This document shows, in pieces, positions 2,304 to 11,406 of a DNA stretch of 64,000 bases. A program made the position numbers and the translations under genes. The DNA is from Promethearchaeota archaeon (GTDB lineage: Archaea; Asgardarchaeota; Lokiarchaeia; Sigyniarchaeales; SOKP01): assembly GCA_019057865.1 (NCBI GenBank), contig JAHLWP010000006.1, positions 89,955-153,954 on the forward strand. Direction: 5' to 3'. The notes under the pieces were generated by a model. The model did not search any database. It was given only the letters and a program-made list of their open reading frames with translations, and had not been told where the DNA came from. The first letter of the stretch is position 1. Every line of letters starts with the position of its first letter.

Positions 2304-2795
2304 TTACTCAAAAATTCTTAAGAGATTCTTTAATTGTAGATTTTGGACAATATTCTTCAGTAAAGCTTTTCCTAACGGTGTTACCTTAATGATGCCTAAA
2401 TTCTCAAATTCTCTTATATAATCATTATCAATTAAAAATTTTATATCTGAATTCCAGACTTTGCCAAAAATTTCTTTTAAATCATATATTTTAATATTTT
2501 CATCAACTTCTTTGCTAAGAGCAAGAATTAACGCTAAGGTACCATATTGAGATGGTGTTATATTATCATCTTTCCCATAAGATGTTAATATATAATAATT
2601 TTGATCCAAAAATTTGGATGTGATTAACTCAAATCCTACATTTTTTAAATTCAAATAAACTTTACTAATAATATTTTTGAATTCAAAACTCTTACATAAA
2701 TTCCTTAAATCTTCCTCTCTAATCATTTTTTGTGGATTGGTTAAAATAATTCTTGAAATATTTTGTACTACTTCTTCAATATTGGTTGCTTCCAT
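2304..2795 (-). CDS. Hypothetical tandem winged-helix protein (KITE/ScpB/MukE-like architecture)
   Basis: Two winged-helix-like segments (LKNVGFELI...YYILT and LIDNDYI...IKVTPLGKALL). Last gene of a co-directional cluster. Confidence 0.5.
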   Translation of the reverse strand: MEATNIEEVVQNISRIILTNPQKMIREEDLRNLCKSFEFKNIISKVYLNLKNVGFELITSKFLDQNYYILTSYGKDDNITPSQYGTLALILALSKEVDENIKIYDLKEIFGKVWNSDIKFLIDNDYIREFENLGIIKVTPLGKALLKNIVQNLQLKNLLRIFE

Positions 2796-2806
2796 AATTT
2801 AATTTA

Positions 2807-4441
2807 TCAACTCTCTTCAATATTTATAACTCTTAAATTTTCAATTTTTTTTTTCATTTCCAAATTCGAAATAATAAAAACCAAATTAGTTGTTGTTAGA
2901 TTTTCTTCACTTTCAAATACAGGTAATATTTTTCTAATTGTTCTATAAATTGAAAGCTTGTTATATTGACTTAGTAAAAATACATTTGAGAAGACAATTG
3001 TTTCAATTTTTAGAATGATTTTAATTGAGATATATAAAATTATAACAAAAAAAATTTTTTCAGGAGTGGTTAATTCCTCAAACTTTATATGTTCTTCATT
3101 ATTACGCATAAAATTTAATTGAACAAAAAAAAAATTATTTTCATTATTGATCGTTATTTGTAATTGAGATTCTATATTGATTTTAGCTAAAAATTTATTG
3201 AGTAGTTCTTCAAGTTCATTAAGTAGGGTTTCAAATTTTCTAAATCTTTCAAAGATCTCTAACATTTCATTTTGATCATATTTAATAATGAGTTCTTCTC
3301 TTTTTAATTTTAAAAGCTCTTCAAATTCTAGTAATTTTTTAGTAATTAGAGAAAAATTCTCTGGATTCTCTGGATCTATTTGATTATTTAAATTTAAGAT
3401 TTCACTTAATTCAGCGTTTAGATTTTCAATTTCTTCTTCGATTTCATTAGTTAATCTTATAGATTGAACATTTTTGATGTTAAGATCTTCATCAGAAATA
3501 TCTTCATATTCTTTTATTTTTTCTTTATATTCATCTTTTAGGTTATTTATTTTATAGTGATCATTTTCAATTATATCTAAAAGATTTTGATAGTCTTTTT
3601 CAAATATTTCATATCGGGGATATAATTCTTCAAATTTTAAACTAGTTTCATGTAATTTTGTTTTAATTTCATTAATCTCGTATTGAATCTTTTTAGCTTT
3701 TTTCTGAAGGGCTTGGATTTTTTCTGCATTTGTTAAATTTTCATCGAATTCTATTGTTAATTTTAAATCATCTTTCTTTTCCTTTTTTACTCCTTCCATT
3801 TGTCTTGTTATACTATTAATCTGATTAAAACATTCTTTCTTTTGTTTATTTAAATTCTGGATTTTTAAATTATAATCATCTAATGTTTTCTTAACTTGAT
3901 CAATCCGATTTTTATGTTGTAGAAAGTCTTCTTCCAAATATTTCAATTTATTTTTGTTATTTATTAGTGATTCATTTAGTTTTTCTATTAAATTTGAAAT
4001 AGCAGTTAATTTACTTGATCGTTTACTAGCTTCTGATAATTTTAATTCTTTTAATAGTATCTTCTTTTTTTTAAGAAGTAGATTAAATTCAAAAGTATGA
4101 ATTATAGACTGAATCAGTTTATTATATTGAGAAAAAATTTCAATATTATTATTAATTGTTCTATGAAATTCTCCCAAGTAGTCTAATAGCTTTGGAGCTT
4201 TACTTAATTCAGAAAAATTTTTCGCTTGATTTTGAAAAATTTCAATAAATTCATCAATTGGAATTAAATCATAATTTTTGGAAATTTTCAAATAACGTTC
4301 ATCTTGAAACTGAGCTAATAAATTTTTTTTGAATTTTCCAAGGATTAAAGTAAATCTATCAGTAATCACAATTTCTTTTTCGCCAATGGAAATTTTCAAA
4401 TTATTTAATTGAATTATAGATTCAGCTCTATTTTTTTTCAA
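2807..4441 (-). CDS. SMC/Rad50-like coiled-coil protein with a degenerate ABC-ATPase head
   Basis: N-terminal QLNNLK...FTLILGKFKK resembles the SMC N-head but lacks the P-loop. Long central coiled coil. C-terminal ELTTPEKIFFVIILYISI...IVFSNVF sits where LSGGEK and Walker B (hhhDE) are expected. Confidence 0.6.
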   Translation of the reverse strand: MKKNRAESIIQLNNLKISIGEKEIVITDRFTLILGKFKKNLLAQFQDERYLKISKNYDLIPIDEFIEIFQNQAKNFSELSKAPKLLDYLGEFHRTINNNIEIFSQYNKLIQSIIHTFEFNLLLKKKKILLKELKLSEASKRSSKLTAISNLIEKLNESLINNKNKLKYLEEDFLQHKNRIDQVKKTLDDYNLKIQNLNKQKKECFNQINSITRQMEGVKKEKKDDLKLTIEFDENLTNAEKIQALQKKAKKIQYEINEIKTKLHETSLKFEELYPRYEIFEKDYQNLLDIIENDHYKINNLKDEYKEKIKEYEDISDEDLNIKNVQSIRLTNEIEEEIENLNAELSEILNLNNQIDPENPENFSLITKKLLEFEELLKLKREELIIKYDQNEMLEIFERFRKFETLLNELEELLNKFLAKINIESQLQITINNENNFFFVQLNFMRNNEEHIKFEELTTPEKIFFVIILYISIKIILKIETIVFSNVFLLSQYNKLSIYRTIRKILPVFESEENLTTTNLVFIISNLEMKKKIENLRVINIEES

Positions 4442-5468
4442 AATGGTCTTTAAATTTTTTGTATTCTTTTTCTTTTCTTTTTTTTCTTTCTCTTATTAAA
4501 TCGAGTGGATCTTGTTCATCATCTTTTGGAATCATATAGTCATCTTTGAATCTCTTTTCAAACTTAGATTTAAATTTATTAATTTTTTCAGATATTTCAT
4601 CACTAATTTCTAAAGGCTTTTTTTCTTCAACTTCTAGAACAATATCAGATAATTTCTCCCTTTTTTTTTTACGTCTTCTTCTTTCGAATTCCGTGTCAGA
4701 ATATTTAAAGTATTCTTCATACGTCTCTTTTTGCTCTTCTTGCTTCTTTTTTAATTTTTTTAATTCTTCTTTATCTCTAGCCTTTTTAATAATTTCTTCC
4801 TTTGCTATTAATTCTTGTTTGGTTAATTGAGTTTCGGTTTCTTTTAAGAATTCCTTGAAATTTAAATTAGGATTTTCCATAAAAAATCTTTCGAACTCTT
4901 TTACTAATAATGTGGCAGTATTATTAGGAATTTTACTTAATTCTATTTTAAGTTTCTTTTGAATTAAATCACTATAAAATGAATTAACATTATTTATTAC
5001 ATCTAAAAACAAAGAATTTTGTTTCAAAGAATCTACTAATTCTAACCATTGGTTTAATTCAACTGAAGGGATGAAAGAAGGTTCATCAATGACTCTACTA
5101 ATCGTTTTATTTTCTATAAGAAATAAGCCAATTTTCTTAGTATTATCTTCATTTATTTTTAATTTCCTTAAGTTTTCTTTGAAGAGATCTTTATACTTTT
5201 TAATTAAGTTATCTTGGAAGTCTAAAAATTTTATAATGTTATTATTTGAAATCTTAATTAATTTAGCATTTAAGTTATTTAATAAATTAGTAGTATCTTC
5301 TATTTGCTCAAGAAATTCTTTATTAGAAAATTGTTTAATTAGAAATTGTTTATTTTGTATAACTCTTTTTGAAATTTCATTTAACTGATTAATCTCACTT
5401 TGAAGTTCTTCTATTGGAGAAGTTAATTCCTTAATTTTTCCAAGGTTGAATATTTGGTTTTTTATCAT
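4428..5468 (-). CDS. Hypothetical coiled-coil protein with highly charged C-terminus
   Basis: 346-aa ORF, heptad-rich, overlapping the SMC-like gene by 14 nt. Confidence 0.7.
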   Translation of the reverse strand: MIKNQIFNLGKIKELTSPIEELQSEINQLNEISKRVIQNKQFLIKQFSNKEFLEQIEDTTNLLNNLNAKLIKISNNNIIKFLDFQDNLIKKYKDLFKENLRKLKINEDNTKKIGLFLIENKTISRVIDEPSFIPSVELNQWLELVDSLKQNSLFLDVINNVNSFYSDLIQKKLKIELSKIPNNTATLLVKEFERFFMENPNLNFKEFLKETETQLTKQELIAKEEIIKKARDKEELKKLKKKQEEQKETYEEYFKYSDTEFERRRRKKKREKLSDIVLEVEEKKPLEISDEISEKINKFKSKFEKRFKDDYMIPKDDEQDPLDLIRERKKRKEKEYKKFKDHFEKK

Positions 5469-5494
5469 TTTTAAAGAAAAATATTATTAGAATT

Positions 5495-6604
5495 TTAAAT
5501 TTCTGGTGGACTTGGTAAATCTCTTCTTTTTTCCTTATATTTTTCTGATCTATTATAATACCTTTTTGTATTACTTAATAGATCCTGCCTTTCAACATGA
5601 TTTGCAGTGCCTCCGACTAATTTTAAAGAATCATAAAAAAGATCATAAGTTAAAAGCTCTGTATTTATTGCCTTTAATATTGCAACTCTAGTACCTCTTT
5701 CAATATCAGATCCAGAATATCCATATGTTAATTCTAAAAGTCCATCTTTCTTTCCTTTTTTATTTATTGCATCCCATAATATATTATTATCAAATTCAGA
5801 AATTTTATGACCTAATTTGACTTCCAAATCTTTAGTTATTGCTTGAATTTTGTTGAACTCATTGTTTAAATTTGTGAAAATATTATTATCAATGCCTATT
5901 TTTGCTTGTTTTAATTTATTAAGAAATGATTCAATAATTTGTTTCCTTAAATAATAATCGGGGAAATCAAATTTAAAATGAAATGTAAAACGCCGCCAAA
6001 TTGCTGAATCTAATTGATGCTGATGATTAGTTGCTCCAAATATAGCTAATGGAACTCCCTCATAATTTATTTTATCAATAACTTGTAAGAAAGAAATAAC
6101 AGCACGTTTTATTTCTCCTACTTCATGAATATTAGATCTTTCAGAACCAATTGCATCAATTTCATCAAAAAATAATATGAAAGCACCTCTTTCTTTTGAA
6201 ATATCAGCTGCTAGCTCAACAACCCTTCGGATATTTTTTATAGTATCTCCTAATAAGGGTGATACTAATCTGTCAGATTCAACTACACAAATAGGTATAT
6301 TGTATTTCTTAGCAAATCCTCTTGTTAATGATGTTTTCCCCGTACCTGGTGGACCATATAAAAGAACTGTTAAATTAGGATTTAATTTTGTATTTTTTAG
6401 CTGTTCTGTAAATTCATTATATTTTTTAAGGGCTTTAAAAAAATCCTCTAAAATTTCTTTTTTAACTTCATTTCCCTTAATATCATCAATAAATTCCTTT
6501 ATATCTGAAGGAAAATAGACAGCACCATATTTACCAATCCGCTCTTTAATAATATCTTCAGTATAAGTTTCTTTTTTTTCTGATTCATCTTTTTTCTTAC
6601 TAAT
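5495..6604 (-). CDS. AAA+ ATPase (369 aa; the ORF track gives only the last 110 aa), probable ATT start
   Basis: The reading frame is open from 6604 to the stop at 5495. It has Walker A YGPPGTGKT, Walker B FFDEIDAIG, sensor GATN and arginine finger LDSAIWRRF. There is no in-frame ATG/GTG/TTG before 5827. An SD-like GGAGATGA lies 6 nt before the ATT at 6604. Confidence 0.88.
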   Translation of the reverse strand: MSKKKDESEKKETYTEDIIKERIGKYGAVYFPSDIKEFIDDIKGNEVKKEILEDFFKALKKYNEFTEQLKNTKLNPNLTVLLYGPPGTGKTSLTRGFAKKYNIPICVVESDRLVSPLLGDTIKNIRRVVELAADISKERGAFILFFDEIDAIGSERSNIHEVGEIKRAVISFLQVIDKINYEGVPLAIFGATNHQHQLDSAIWRRFTFHFKFDFPDYYLRKQIIESFLNKLKQAKIGIDNNIFTNLNNEFNKIQAITKDLEVKLGHKISEFDNNILWDAINKKGKKDGLLELTYGYSGSDIERGTRVAILKAINTELLTYDLFYDSLKLVGGTANHVERQDLLSNTKRYYNRSEKYKEKRRDLPSPPEI

Positions 6605-6630
6605 TTTTCATCATCTCCAATATTTGTATA

Positions 6631-7938
6631 TTATTTATTTTTTCTTTTATTATCAAATTTTTCACAATAATTTGCAATTTCATTAATAAAATCTTTAAGA
6701 TTATCAATTTGAGATCCAATAAAATTAAAGATTTCTTTTCTATACTGAGGAGAATCTCTGATTTTCATCTTATCCAAACTTAAATAATTAGGGAAGCATA
6801 TAAGTTTCATTAAATAAGGAAGAACTTTCTCATTAGTTTGTAAATCTTTAAAAATGGCATAAAATATGTTTTCATCAGACAATTTCCACTTTAAAAGACC
6901 CATATACATCAAAAATGCAAAATTCATTGAAATCCAATTTATTAATTCTTTTGATAAAAATCCTCGTCTTTGTGAAGCAAAAGCTAAATAATACAAAATC
7001 AAAGTTTCATTGCTAAATTGGGGATTTAATCTTATTGATCCATCAGATTGCTTATTTTCACGTAAGAATTTATTATCTAATAAGATTTGCACAAAATTTT
7101 CTTGAGGCGCTAAGAATATTCCATCGATCTCACGTAAACCTATACGTTCAGCAATTTTTTCTAGAGCTTCTTCTTCTGGATTTGCAATTGAATCGATATA
7201 TGGCAAAAATACAGTAGTCTTTAAAATCATTGGAAGTTCATAATTTTTTCTTTCAGGAAATTCTCCAAAATTTGGATCCAAATTATATAATGATGTAATA
7301 TTATTCATTATTTGATAAATTTTTGGAGACATTCCTGGAATCTCAAAAAAATCAGTATTTTCTAATTTTTCTCGATAATATGTATGAGGTTGAAGTAAAT
7401 GTCGTTGGCATTCATAAAATGTTGGAGCATATTCCAATAACGCCTCATAAATGATTTTTATATTAGTACCTCTTGGAAATAGTCTTTCTTCTATAAATTT
7501 CACTAAAAGATAAAGATACGTATTCTCTATATTAATTTCGTCTGGATTTGTAATATATCGTAATATATTTAAGGCATCAACCGATTCCTGAAGAAATTCA
7601 ACAATATAATCTTTAATATCTATAATGGGAATATTTTCTCTATATTTAATAATAAAATCCTTTATTATTTCATATATATTTGATCTATACATTGCAGAGA
7701 ATTCAGAGAGTGCTCTAACTTTGCGAATATTTCTTTTTTCTTCTTCTTGTCGAATCTTATCTAAAATTTCTGTATCTAGTAAAAGATCTGCGTCTAAATC
7801 AATAATTATCCTTCTTGTCTCCCTAAGAATTGGACGCATATGACTTATAAATGTTAAATATCGTGGTAAAATATCAGTCCATTTCTCCCTTTTTCGTCCA
7901 GGCTTGGTTATTCTTGTAGAACTCCTTTTATAACTCAT
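6631..7938 (-). CDS. Hypothetical protein, mostly alpha-helical
   Basis: 435-aa ORF tightly packed in the operon; no motif recognised. Confidence 0.75.
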   Translation of the reverse strand: MSYKRSSTRITKPGRKREKWTDILPRYLTFISHMRPILRETRRIIIDLDADLLLDTEILDKIRQEEEKRNIRKVRALSEFSAMYRSNIYEIIKDFIIKYRENIPIIDIKDYIVEFLQESVDALNILRYITNPDEINIENTYLYLLVKFIEERLFPRGTNIKIIYEALLEYAPTFYECQRHLLQPHTYYREKLENTDFFEIPGMSPKIYQIMNNITSLYNLDPNFGEFPERKNYELPMILKTTVFLPYIDSIANPEEEALEKIAERIGLREIDGIFLAPQENFVQILLDNKFLRENKQSDGSIRLNPQFSNETLILYYLAFASQRRGFLSKELINWISMNFAFLMYMGLLKWKLSDENIFYAIFKDLQTNEKVLPYLMKLICFPNYLSLDKMKIRDSPQYRKEIFNFIGSQIDNLKDFINEIANYCEKFDNKRKNK

Positions 7939-7959
7939 TTTTTAACACATTGATTTTTC

Positions 7960-9099
7960 TTATTCTTCTTCATATCCAACTAATATTTCAGTAAAAATGT
8001 TAGAGATCTCAATAAAAATGGGAATCTCCACCCTACATAAGTTACCAAGTATCCATTTATTAACATCCTTTAATAAGAAACGAATTTGGTTATGGATTTT
8101 TTTGTTAATTTCAGAATCAATTATATGAGAAAGCCATAATCCCCCACCTATTCTATATGCAATTATTTTGATTAGAGGTTCGAATAAATATTCTAATACT
8201 TGTTTCATCATCCAAGATTTCGGTATAACACTCATGCTTTTATTATCAAAATTTGGATCATTTAAAATGGGATTTGTTTCATCTATTGATAGTTTTGGCA
8301 GGAAGCTTAATAATAAAATTAAGGCTAGTATAGCAGAAATTCCATTTATTGTATAAGATCCTCCAATTTTTTCAATATCATCTCGGTTTATAGCTACATT
8401 TGCTAAAAACATGCAAATAAAAACATTTCTATCAAATAGTTCAGACACATAAGCATATCCTAAGTCTTGGTCAACGATTAAATATTTTTCTTCTAGAATT
8501 TTAATTATATCATCCGGAAATGTATAAAAAGTATAAACTTTTTCTTCACTTCTTCTTATATCCTTTTCAATGACAAGTTCTTTTGAAATGAGCCCAAACA
8601 TATCAATGAGCTCTTCAAGTTGATTTTTTATATAGTGTTTAGGTTTATTTGGATCACCAAACATCGCAAAAAATTGATGATCTACAATATGAAAATCGTT
8701 TCTTTTGCTAAACGCCTCAACAATCCTATCAATTATGGGTCCTTGGGTCCCAGAAGCAATTGCTTTTGCTTTTGAAGTTACAAACCCGTTCAATAATTCA
8801 TTTATAATAAAATCTTGCTCATGAGTTCTAGATTTCAAAACTTTTTCAAATGCTTCTGAAAAATTTTTGGTATTAGGAAAGAATGCATTTTGTATTTTAT
8901 CATTAATAGACTTTGAAAAGATTTCACCATTATTCTTAGGAAAATGGAGTTGCATATTATTTAGTCTTTGAATTAGCGCCTCTTTTGCTCCCGGAATATT
9001 TTCAATATCTCTTTTTTCCAATTCTTCAATAGCTTTTTCAACTCCTTTTTCAAATTCCTGCAATAATTCTTTCCATATAGCATTCTGAATTTCAGTCAT
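7960..9099 (-). CDS. Hypothetical protein, possible central winged helix
   Basis: 379-aa ORF with a GAGGT SD upstream; no family recognised. Confidence 0.75.
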   Translation of the reverse strand: MTEIQNAIWKELLQEFEKGVEKAIEELEKRDIENIPGAKEALIQRLNNMQLHFPKNNGEIFSKSINDKIQNAFFPNTKNFSEAFEKVLKSRTHEQDFIINELLNGFVTSKAKAIASGTQGPIIDRIVEAFSKRNDFHIVDHQFFAMFGDPNKPKHYIKNQLEELIDMFGLISKELVIEKDIRRSEEKVYTFYTFPDDIIKILEEKYLIVDQDLGYAYVSELFDRNVFICMFLANVAINRDDIEKIGGSYTINGISAILALILLLSFLPKLSIDETNPILNDPNFDNKSMSVIPKSWMMKQVLEYLFEPLIKIIAYRIGGGLWLSHIIDSEINKKIHNQIRFLLKDVNKWILGNLCRVEIPIFIEISNIFTEILVGYEEE

Positions 9100-9115
9100 T
9101 TATTCTTTAATACCT

Positions 9116-10093
9116 CTACCTTCTTTCATTTGTTATATTCCAATTTAGTTCTACTGATATTTTCTTTAAAGCCTCTATTAATGGAGAAACTGACTTTTTA
9201 TCATAAAAATTTGGTGATGAAACTCCCTTTTGTGCTTTCCAACCCATTTGAGTTCCCTCGCCCATTTCTCTTTGTCCATATTTCAAAATATTGCTAAGAT
9301 CTCGTATCCACCAATAAAACCTTAACCATTTTTTATTTGGATTATCTTTAGAATAGATAACTGCTAATGCTTTCCATTCACCCATCAGCCATTTTACAGT
9401 TATACCGCTCACGGGCATATAAAAATTTATTGGAAAATCTGCTTGAAAGCGTAGATCGAGATCTGAAGGTGTTATGTTGAATATTGGTTGATTATATCCT
9501 TCTAGAATAACAATTTCTCCACAATGTTGACATTCATAATGAGATTTCCTTTTTTCCATTTTTTTTTGACATCTTGGACATGTTTTATTTTCAATTATCC
9601 TATATTTAATAATTTCCAATTGTTTCTCCTTTTCTAATTCTTCTTCTGTTTTAGGTCGTCGTTTTCCATATTTTCCTGTCCAATTCCATAACTCATCAAA
9701 TGATTCATCAAATTTTTCTAAAGAATTAATAAGATTGTTAAGAACATCCTTATCATAAATTTTAAACATTCCAGCATGTTGATAGGTTTTCCACCAAGAT
9801 AATCTAATATATTTCTCATTTTTCAAATAAGCACTATGACAAATCAATACTGCAAATGCCTGATTTTCTGTTTTATTTAAAAGAATACCTTTCTCACATA
9901 TCTCATATCTTCGATCTAAACTCAAATTTTTATGAAAATAATCTCCGTTCTGAATTTCACCCTTTTCAATTTTCATTTCCTCCACTAATTCAGCTATAAC
10001 GTCTTTTTCTTTAATAATCTTTCTACATTGAGGGCATTGATAAATGCCTGCAACTAATAATTCCATTTCAATATTACATGAAGGACATTTCAA
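9116..10093 (-). CDS. Protein with two tandem (zinc ribbon + PC4-like beta-sheet domain) units
   Basis: CPSC...YQCPQC and CPRC...YECQHC ribbons, each followed by a similar module (KYIRLSWW...IYDKDVLNNLINSLEK and KWLRFYWW...FYDKKSVSPLIEALKK). TTG start. Confidence 0.6.
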   Translation of the reverse strand: MKCPSCNIEMELLVAGIYQCPQCRKIIKEKDVIAELVEEMKIEKGEIQNGDYFHKNLSLDRRYEICEKGILLNKTENQAFAVLICHSAYLKNEKYIRLSWWKTYQHAGMFKIYDKDVLNNLINSLEKFDESFDELWNWTGKYGKRRPKTEEELEKEKQLEIIKYRIIENKTCPRCQKKMEKRKSHYECQHCGEIVILEGYNQPIFNITPSDLDLRFQADFPINFYMPVSGITVKWLMGEWKALAVIYSKDNPNKKWLRFYWWIRDLSNILKYGQREMGEGTQMGWKAQKGVSSPNFYDKKSVSPLIEALKKISVELNWNITNERR

Positions 10094-10095
10094 AT

Positions 10096-11196
10096 TTAAT
10101 CATTCCCACTCAGAATTATAAATCTTTCATAATCTAAATTTAATAATTTTAATTCTTTCTTTGTTAGTTTTGAAATTTCATTATTTATTTTTATCAAATT
10201 CGTTCTAAGCTTTATCAGGGATTCTTGAATTTTCTTTAGAATATCATCCTCATTAAAAGAAACTTTTTTAATGAATTCAAGGTAACCGAGTTTTTTATCT
10301 TTTCCAGAATAATACTTTTTAATATCTGCTAGTTTATTATCTACTTCTTCTAATTGGTATCGGAAATTTATTAAAGATACTAACTTTGAATTCCATTCTT
10401 TAAATATAGAATTTTCTTTATCAATCTTATCAAAATCGAATTTTTCATTAAGATCCACATTTTCTTCTCTAAGAAATTCTAGAACGTCCTTATTTTCTTC
10501 TAGTGCTTTATTAATTTTTTTTACAACAGGTTTAGTATTTAAAATTGGTTCAAATATTTTAATCAATTCATTTAGTTTTTCTTGAATTTCTTTAAATCGC
10601 TGATAGAAACCTTCAATTGTTATTTCGATTTTAATGGCTTGATATATATTTCCATATTGATCTAAAATATGATAAAGATCGTCCGATAGTGTGTAATCAT
10701 GTTCTCCAATTTCAAAAATAAATGCGTGTATTGCACTAGTTTTCTCACATCTTACCCCTTTTAATCTAGTAATAGCTAAATTAAAATTTCTTCTTTGGAG
10801 AAATTTTAATTTCTTATTAATCATTAAATAGAGAGTATCATCTGGTACAGATATTGTATCTTTTTCTATTGTTATTGTCTCATCTCCTAATTTTATGATA
10901 AAGTCATCATCTTTAAGTTCAAACTCTCTTGTATTTCGTATATTTTTAAATAAACCCAAATCAACAGCAACTTCAATAAATTCCTCATTCCAAAAATTTA
11001 TGATATTTCTTTTATATATTTCATCTAATATTATAATTCTCTCATAAGATTCAATTATGTTTGGTTCATTTAAATCTTTAAATAAATCATATCTAATAGC
11101 ATAAAGGAATAGAATAATATATCTCATATCCTTATCTTCTAAAATTTTATCAATTAAATCCTTATCATAATCTAATGTTAATGTCTTATGCTCCAT
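10096..11196 (-). CDS. Hypothetical protein with N-terminal winged-helix-like region and C-terminal helical bundle/coiled coil
   Basis: 366-aa ORF, first gene of the minus-strand cluster; heptad pattern in the C-terminal half. Confidence 0.7.
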   Translation of the reverse strand: MEHKTLTLDYDKDLIDKILEDKDMRYIILFLYAIRYDLFKDLNEPNIIESYERIIILDEIYKRNIINFWNEEFIEVAVDLGLFKNIRNTREFELKDDDFIIKLGDETITIEKDTISVPDDTLYLMINKKLKFLQRRNFNLAITRLKGVRCEKTSAIHAFIFEIGEHDYTLSDDLYHILDQYGNIYQAIKIEITIEGFYQRFKEIQEKLNELIKIFEPILNTKPVVKKINKALEENKDVLEFLREENVDLNEKFDFDKIDKENSIFKEWNSKLVSLINFRYQLEEVDNKLADIKKYYSGKDKKLGYLEFIKKVSFNEDDILKKIQESLIKLRTNLIKINNEISKLTKKELKLLNLDYERFIILSGND

Positions 11197-11406
11197 ACCT
11201 AAAGTCCACTAATTATTATTAATACTATAAATTCATTATCGTGAAAAAGAGTAAGATTGATAATTAAACATTCCTAAAAAATTTTACTAAATTCCTCTTA
11301 ATTACTAATCCATAAAAGCAAAATTTTTTAGTTTTTATTTCTATTTGTTTAATAAGAATTTTAAAATTCATGAATTTAGTTTAAACAATTTTTAGAGTTT
11401 TTCAAC

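Follow-up and report, generated by a model that had tools for sequence, protein, structure and literature searches.

A conserved Lokiarchaeales operon encoding a degenerate SMC-like protein, a KITE-like protein and an AAA+ ATPase

An eight-gene operon beside elf1

The stretch of DNA considered here, referred to below as the window, is 64,000 nucleotides (nt) long and comes from Promethearchaeota archaeon (assembly GCA_019057865.1, contig JAHLWP010000006.1, positions 89,955-153,954 of the forward strand), an Asgard genome of 4.26 Mb that is 99.7% complete and whose relatives are deposited as Promethearchaeota or Promethearchaeia, i.e. Lokiarchaeia. Its subject is an operon of eight open reading frames (ORFs), g1 to g8, which lie co-directionally on the minus strand from position 11196 down to 2304 (Table 1) and include genes for a degenerate SMC-like protein (g7), a protein resembling the KITE subunits of SMC complexes (g8) and an AAA+ ATPase (g5). 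A preliminary description of the window had listed eight co-directional genes with gaps of no more than 26 nt, divergent from elf1 and set among core genes without marks of mobility, and this layout is found throughout: all of the ORFs are present in the ORF map, the gaps from g1 to g8 are 2, 16, 21, 26, 26, -14 (an overlap) and 11 nt, elf1 lies on the opposite strand as the divergent neighbour in both of the families (f1 and f2) that carry the operon, and no mobility marks occur among the neighbouring ORFs. Within the intergenic region shared by g1 and elf1 the ORF map has no ORF on the operon strand.

Table 1. Position and description of the operon genes and the adjoining intergenic region; positions are those of the window, lengths are in amino acids (aa).
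Feature	Position	Strand	Description
g1	10096..11196	-	366 aa; first gene of the operon; globular N-terminal half, coiled-coil-like C-terminal half
g2	9116..10093	-	325 aa; TTG start; duplicated zinc ribbon plus domain of ~120 aa
g3	7960..9099	-	379 aa; orphan family; one conserved hydrophobic helix
g4	6631..7938	-	435 aa; orphan family; probable distant paralogue of g3
g5	5495..6604	-	369 codons; classic-clade AAA ATPase, single domain; ATT start
g6	4428..5468	-	346 aa; helical; basic tail rich in K, R and E
g7	2807..4441	-	544 aa; TTG start; mini SMC/Rad50-like; degenerate ATP motifs
g8	2304..2795	-	163 aa; tandem winged-helix, KITE-like
Intergenic region shared by g1 and elf1, divergent	11197..11406		presumed promoter region of the operon

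The order of the eight genes is the same in 26 fetched loci from around 20 genera, belonging to the two families of one Asgard order, and the arrangement is thus far beyond chance. The preliminary description had staked its proposal on synteny in other Asgard genomes, which these loci provide. The g4 gene is present in 122 of the 151 genomes of a class sample and in 37 of the 40 high-quality ones, with all matches in f1 and f2, and a g4 profile run across the phylum gives the same picture (62/68 in f1, 6/7 in f2, none in the other families sampled). With a g3 profile built from a wide alignment the figures are 118/134 for f1 and 13/14 for f2, with none in the other sampled families except f33, where there are two weak matches. 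Five apparent absences of the operon were checked and three of them turned out to be scaffold gaps or contig ends that cut it; loss of the operon in G092, G094 and G015 was rejected, as N-filled scaffold gaps or contig ends are found there. Two of the genomes presented as single contigs (L145, G094:C1, and L146, G092:C1) are in fact scaffolds joined by runs of 100 N, and as one such run cuts the operon, tallies of presence and absence undercount it. The cluster is kept in nearly all Lokiarchaeales and is lineage-defining for them.

All eight genes are single-copy in the genome of the window. The proteins g2 to g5 share 59-88% identity with those of the window within f1 and 40-56% in f2, and they evolve at a rate like that of the flanking core genes. 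Identities within f1 are 54-72% for g8, 36-55% for g6 and 33-47% for g7, the latter two being fast evolving.

The SMC-like and KITE-like proteins and their variants

In the preliminary description g7 was taken for an SMC-like protein with a degenerate head and g8 for a tandem winged-helix KITE, and the two folds were put forward as a test of the whole proposal; structure comparison bears out both. The AlphaFold2 (AF2) model of g7, based on 14 orthologues, has a predicted local distance difference test score (pLDDT) of 84 and consists of N-terminal strands, two long antiparallel helices (residues 74-215 and 238-421, or ~140 residues for each arm of the coiled coil) and a C-terminal alpha/beta half. 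The top matches of this model in Foldseek are all Rad50, Smc5/6, JetC, LmuB or MukB (expectation values, E, of 3e-8 to 1e-4), with cohesin and Smc also among the leading ones. With VIA-align, an exhaustive method that is independent of Foldseek, g7 superposes on the Pyrococcus Rad50 head 3qkt_D with a Z-score (Z) of 11.6 and a root-mean-square deviation (rmsd) of 3.8 A, across 196 residues that come from the two ends of the protein and span residues 13-544, and on the Smc5/6 head 8t8e_A with Z 11.0 over 209 residues. The coiled coil matches SMC arm fragments with Z 12-13, a weak feature on its own as long helices alone score high. The modelled protein would therefore possess two features of the SMC superfamily, a bipartite ABC-type head assembled from the N- and C-terminal ends and a long antiparallel coiled coil between the two halves of that head.

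The motifs for ATP binding are another matter. At the aligned positions g7 reads LGKFKK for Walker A, LTTPEK for the signature and IVFSN for Walker B. The GxxxxGK[ST] P-loop is absent from all 14 window-type orthologues, with G35 the only residue of it that is kept; in the signature L457, E461 and K462 are kept and SGG has become TTP, and in Walker B DE has become SN. There is neither a hinge nor a zinc hook, the apex (residues 216-237) being a short loop of low confidence with no CxxC. Thus g7 has the fold features of the SMC family and lacks its ATP motifs and its hinge. On the model it is best described as a shortened SMC/Rad50-type protein with an ABC-fold head from which Walker A, signature and Walker B have been lost, and from these losses it presumably neither binds nor hydrolyses ATP in the canonical ABC manner. 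At the level of sequence profiles g7 gives weak coiled-coil matches only among the PADLOC models (JetC3 1.6e-7, LmuB 5e-3).

The evidence for g8 is also structural. Its AF2 model (pLDDT 88) contains two winged helices and the top ranks in Foldseek are held by Nse1, Nse3/MAGE, ScpB, MukE and JetB. VIA-align places MAGE-G1 (Z 10.6) and Nse1 (Z 9.9, rmsd 3.8 A, 150/163 residues) first, with ScpB and JetB as the remaining full-length matches, and in the ESM Atlas the matches are eukaryotic Nse1 (TM 0.63), DUF4194/MksE (TM 0.57) and ScpB (TM 0.56), so that in three structure libraries the best full-length matches are KITE proteins. As expected of a KITE, the model has two tandem winged-helix domains within ~160-250 aa, and the gene adjoins that of an SMC-family protein, following g7 after 11 nt, with homologues that close the SMC-type operons described below. 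By sequence g8 has no match to the ScpB, MukE, DUF4194 or Nse1 models in Pfam, NCBIfam, PADLOC or PDB sequences. A g8 profile does match the small gene that ends the SMC-type operons (97% probability and E 7e-11 in hhalign), and the mean column identity of g8 is 55% across the two families. On the predicted fold g8 is a KITE-type tandem winged-helix subunit that is closest to Nse1/Nse3. The g8 orthologue of the f2 genome G105 (L021:10910-11650) carries a C-terminal (KKKTT)n tail of ~80 residues that is highly basic.

Sister lineages carry the same operon with other SMC-family proteins. In three f1 loci (L025, L031 and L039), termed hook-type here, g1-g5 are followed by a 150-aa gene, a protein of 644-669 aa and a 154-aa gene; the large protein has GRTASGKS and LSGGER motifs and a CxxC in the middle of its coil, and its profile matches SMC heads. 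The complete f2 genome G054 has the order g1-like, g3-like, g4-like, AAA+, an SMC of 1057 aa, and then proteins of 322, 313 and 176 aa, with g2 found 7 kb away from the operon. GKNGSGKS and DE motifs and a hinge-like middle region are present in this SMC, whose closest relatives of solved structure are Smc5 (5e-9) and Smc6 (3.5e-8). A similar order was seen in metagenomic or metagenome-assembled genome (MAG) contigs found via the most divergent relatives of g3 (L056, L059, L060, L061 and L063). In L056, L059, L060 and L063 g1-like, g3-like, g4-like and AAA genes precede an SMC_N protein of ~1000-1200 aa, save that no g1-like gene was found in L059 and the contig of L056 ends within the SMC_N gene; L061 has its SMC_N gene upstream, on the opposite strand. 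L059 and L063 resemble G054 in having three small genes behind the SMC, and in three operons, including that of G054, the last of them is the g8 homologue. There are three other large SMC proteins in G054 and at least two of canonical size in the genome of the window, thus the SMC of the operon is an extra paralogue. In L056, which has the most divergent operon, genes for a ThiF (E1-like) and a Prok-JAB protein lie directly upstream (1-1560), which suggests a ubiquitin-like modification pair beside an SMC5/6-flavoured system and may be coincidence.

It is apparent that the AAA+ module, made up of g1, g3, g4 and the ATPase with g2 close by, adjoins an SMC-family protein in every lineage examined, and that it does so with three types of SMC. 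From this recurrence the partnership of AAA+ and SMC appears to be both functional and ancestral, with an ancestor that would have had an ATP-competent SMC. The preliminary description had supposed that ATPase function moved from the SMC head to the AAA+ protein, and this part has to be given up: the same module stands beside ATPase-competent SMCs in the sister lineages, and so the partnership predates the loss. An alternative is that two unrelated units share one operon, an AAA+ module (g1-g5) with a substrate other than DNA and a relict, possibly functionless, SMC-KITE unit (g6-g8). The tolerance of g1-g5 for three different SMC-type neighbours would suit such an arrangement, as would the dead ATP motifs of g7 and the fast drift of g6 and g7, yet without a functional link it is hard to account for an SMC-family neighbour in every lineage examined. 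Furthermore, the frames of g7 and g8 have stayed open, their predicted folds are confident and some of their positions are conserved over both families (E461 and K462 of g7, and the column identity of g8 given above), whilst the 14-nt overlap of g6 with g7 and the tight spacing of the remaining genes point the same way, and we regard two independent units as quite improbable.

The AAA+ ATPase and the companion proteins

That g5 is an intact AAA+ ATPase, as had been claimed, is well supported. It matches PF00004 with 1.5e-25 and 90.6 bits (cut-off 21.2), its closest solved relatives are VAT/p97, and Walker A (G84-T91, GPPGTGKT), Walker B (D147 and E148), sensor 1 (N193) and the Arg fingers (R204 and R205) show no variation among 24 orthologues; judged by these motifs it would belong to the classic clade of AAA proteins. 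The best named models are those of IetA/IteA, with 2e-58 in PADLOC and 176 bits against a cut-off of 510 for NCBIfam IteA. At the position of pore loop 1 (residues 117-119) g5 has L-L-G, invariant or nearly so in the orthologues, where aromatic-hydrophobic-Gly is usual, and the grip on the substrate may be unlike that of typical unfoldases.

The start of g5 is unusual. Codon 260 is the first at which the frame offers an ATG, GTG or TTG, and a mechanical list of ORFs therefore gives just 110 aa. The first codon of the frame is ATT (6604-6602), which in the alignment falls on the ATG that opens the orthologues (products starting M-S-K). Two assemblies with 96% identity share the ATT, and in other lineages (L043, L018 and L015) the position holds ATT or ATA. 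From this alignment and its repetition across assemblies and lineages the 369-aa g5 would be real and would use a near-cognate ATT start. A tRNA-type intron, a frameshift and a sequencing error were considered and rejected, as the ATT aligns codon for codon with the orthologue ATG. An out-of-frame ATGATGAAAAATTAG overlaps the start (window 6602-6614, minus strand, with ATGATG at 6614), and it is possible that initiation here is of low efficiency or coupled and so sets the dosage of the AAA+ protein. Similar features are seen at the 5' end of g7 in L043 (5089-5345), L045, L027 and L034, where ~80 N-terminal codons are open and conserved with no preceding ATG, GTG or TTG, which makes the mechanical ORF calls look truncated. 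Non-canonical or re-initiation starts seem to be common in the operon, with g2 and g7 of the window starting with TTG.

The other products resist assignment. No match was found for g1, g3, g4 or g6 in Pfam, NCBIfam, PADLOC or PDB sequences, and profile searches of PDB sequences with these four and with g8 gave nothing, or noise from coiled coils and zinc ribbons. A feature search of the ESM Atlas gave no usable match for g3 or g4, and Pfam searches with half-proteins and with all the sequences aligned for g3 and g4 gave no recurrent family. Homologues of g1 (E from 1e-5 to 9e-14) are encoded ahead of the g3-like gene in divergent operons of the SMC type.

More can be said of g2, whose two zinc ribbons, already noted in the preliminary description, are confirmed by a match to Pfam Zn_ribbon_6 (6e-7, 29.8 bits, cut-off 25) and by eight cysteines that are invariant or nearly so in 26 sequences. 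The protein is an internal duplication of a CxxC...CxxC zinc ribbon plus a domain of ~120 aa, with the motif RLSWW in one copy and RFYWW in the other, and the halves align with each other (E 9e-4). It has 335 relatives; among the 120 listed none is informatively named, and the named ones are Promethearchaeota-type MAG proteins. The likeness to PC4 that had been proposed was one seen by eye, and a Pfam PC4 match was looked for and not found.

The hydrophobic helix of g3 spans residues 245-274 in the hydropathy profile and is conserved. The g3 family forms 37 clusters among 1.84 billion representative proteins and is 72-87% identical across the genera of f1. The g4 profile aligns with that of g3 over 235 columns (hhalign probability 40%, E 3e-4), the hydrophobic helix is common to both, and a third protein, found in L056 (2128-3288) and L061 (4723-5844), matches both profiles; on this basis g3 and g4 are probably distant paralogues.

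The protein g6 has conserved residues at Y250, Y253, R263 and R266. It was found neither in the hook-type loci nor in the SMC-type operons, its absence thus going with a change of SMC module, and hhalign gave no significant match between g6 and the accessory proteins of the SMC-type operons. It may be put forward as a candidate for a bridging (kleisin-like) subunit. A predicted complex of g6, the head halves of g7 and two copies of g8 scored 0.46, and the score was 0.63 when the C-terminal half of g7 was swapped for an unrelated protein, so that it counts neither for nor against binding. An accessory protein of G054 gave one weak match to Nse4_C (E 1.3e-3), which was not repeated in L059 or L063, and no Nse4_C match was found in the genome of the window.

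A coiled-coil scaffold with tandem winged-helix adaptors that is remodelled by a Vps4-like AAA protein also recalls ESCRT, and the target of the system could be a membrane or the cytoskeleton. ESCRT-II tandem winged-helix proteins are among the lower fold matches of g8, models of the CdvC/Vps4 type match g5 weakly, g3 and g4 have their common hydrophobic helix, and the Asgard genome is rich in cytoskeletal genes. Against this, ESCRT-II ranks clearly lower for g8 than the KITE proteins, Pfam finds no MIT domain in g5, the sister operons have a true SMC that is closest to Smc5 and Smc6, and both the zinc ribbons of g2 and the basic tail of g6 are typical of proteins that bind nucleic acids. A target of this kind is very improbable indeed.

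A probable SMC-KITE scaffold joined to an AAA+ module

Taken as a whole, g1-g8 are probably one conserved Lokiarchaeales operon for a divergent SMC-family complex that is joined to an AAA+ remodelling module, and the eight products may form a single complex acting on DNA. The ancestral machine would have had two ATPases, of which the lineage of the window kept only the AAA+ protein; the SMC would have shrunk to 544 aa, lost its ATP motifs later and stayed under selection together with the KITE. The mini-SMC and g8, probably with g6 and its basic tail, could then form a passive scaffold that binds or bridges DNA. The sole energy input would be a hexamer of g5, helped by the g3/g4 pair, the zinc-ribbon protein g2 and g1, and the AAA+ ring may assemble, load, release or recycle the scaffold on chromosomal DNA.

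A number of points weigh against this reading. No kleisin was found in the operon by sequence searches and neither g6 nor g1 has recognisable kleisin features, and to our knowledge no SMC-KITE pair works without a kleisin; thus of the SMC-kleisin-KITE machine first proposed for this locus, the SMC fold of g7 and the KITE fold of g8 are the parts that stand. Window-type g7 has no significant hhalign match to the hook-type or the full-length SMCs beyond coiled-coil stretches, and g6 is likewise unmatched. Neither need be orthologous to the variant proteins, and the SMC of the window lineage could be a non-orthologous replacement. The hinge or hook by which g7 might dimerise is also lacking. Finally, rapid evolution of g6 and g7, together with two or more exchanges of the SMC module, is a pattern that conflict systems show as well, and the nearest named relative of g5 is an anti-phage ATPase.

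The last two points lead to the possibility of defence against plasmids or viruses of the Wadjet or Lamassu kind, with the SMC-like protein as sensor and the IetA-like AAA+ protein or g3/g4 as effectors. SMC-like proteins head several defence systems, structures of LmuB and JetC are among the fold matches of g7, and g3 and g4 could hide an effector. The distribution of the operon is not that of a defence system, as it is single-copy, near-universal and held at one fixed site by elf1 in two families, with g2-g5 conserved like core genes, no mobile-element or island marks among the neighbouring ORFs and none of the patchy presence at the level of strains. No match to a nuclease, protease, Toprim or other effector domain was found in the operon, and neither was IetS, JetD or LmuA nor any PADLOC system, and the score of g5 is far under the IteA cut-off. 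Defence is therefore unlikely. A housekeeping role in chromosome organisation, repair or segregation is favoured by the fixed site beside elf1, the single copy, the near-universal presence, the core-like conservation of g2-g5 and the lack of an effector domain or PADLOC system.

A bolder proposal, which we consider doubtful, is that this would be the first SMC-family machine with a work cycle driven in trans by an AAA+ ATPase. On that proposal a complex related to Smc5/6 would, in Lokiarchaeales, have gained a dedicated AAA+ remodeller and four novel cofactors, its SMC head would then have become a pseudo-ATPase, and DNA loading, clamping or release would be powered wholly by the AAA+ ring.

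The known system that the operon recalls most readily is Smc5/6-Nse along with its archaeal relatives. Both canonical SMC complexes and SMC5/6-related ones have been described in Asgard and TACK archaea, along with Nse4-like kleisins and Nse1/3-like kites (Yoshinaga and Inagaki 2021 PMC8665677; van Hooff et al. 10.1101/2024.01.07.573240), and some Asgard genomes have a third kite paralogue with SMC and kleisin genes of its own (preprint, 10.1101/2024.01.07.573240). A text search of the preprint finds no 'AAA+', and one of PMC8665677 finds no 'degenerate' SMC head. As in these complexes, an SMC-type protein and an Nse1/Nse3-like KITE are encoded together in the operon, and the SMC of G054 has Smc5 and Smc6 as its best solved relatives. 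Unlike them, g7 is 544 aa long, hinge-less and without any of the ATP motifs, no Nse4-type kleisin was found, and five extra conserved genes, including that of the AAA+ ATPase, are obligate neighbours here.

In Smc-ScpAB, MukBEF and Wadjet (JetABCD), too, an operon encodes a protein of the SMC family and a small KITE with tandem winged helices. In contrast to these, the operon has no ScpA, MukF or JetA kleisin and no JetD nuclease, its SMC head is probably ATPase-dead and has an AAA+ partner, and there is no family match at the level of sequence but for one weak coiled-coil match to JetC. It cannot be placed in Wadjet or Lamassu, as PADLOC finds no JetA, JetB, JetD, LmuA or LmuC. Rad50/SbcC resembles g7 in that the Pyrococcus Rad50 head is the one on which g7 superposes best, and the ~650-aa protein of L025, L031 and L039 has a CxxC in mid-coil that is like a zinc hook, but the operon has no Mre11/SbcD nuclease gene and g7 of the window has neither hook nor ATP motifs. 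With IetAS, which pairs an anti-phage AAA ATPase with a protease, the likeness is confined to the AAA domain of g5, which scores best against the IetA/IteA models; g5 is far below the family cut-off, the gene context and the pattern of conservation are entirely different, and neither IetS nor any protease match was found in the operon.

The preliminary description had recognised no named system of this composition, and the searches of PADLOC, Pfam, NCBIfam and the literature agree, full-text literature searching having found nothing relevant on such a system. The combination of an ATPase-less SMC, a KITE and an intact AAA+ protein with four proteins of unknown fold has not been described before.

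SMC complexes are thought to depend on the ATPase of their own heads. An SMC scaffold without a motor, with an outside ATPase taking over, would be a natural experiment, and if true it would show how SMC complexes can come under external ATPase control in organisms that are close relatives of the eukaryotic ancestor, in a system that carries a flavour of Smc5/6 and Nse1/Nse3. Five further conserved protein families of no known fold (g1-g4 and g6) come with the operon. Lokiarchaeales are among the Asgard archaea brought into culture, and single-contig genomes of the same order have the operon, in the window type in G105 and G380 and in the full-length-SMC type in G054, so that tests would be feasible if these strains are cultured.

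Genes for g3 that are 81-94% identical to that of the window occur in records labelled as Nanopelagicaceae bacterium, Hodarchaeota, Thorarchaeota, Odinarchaeota and Hermodarchaeota (among them L115, L065, L077 and L113). These labels on MAGs that bear g3 are probably wrong, or else the bins are contaminated.

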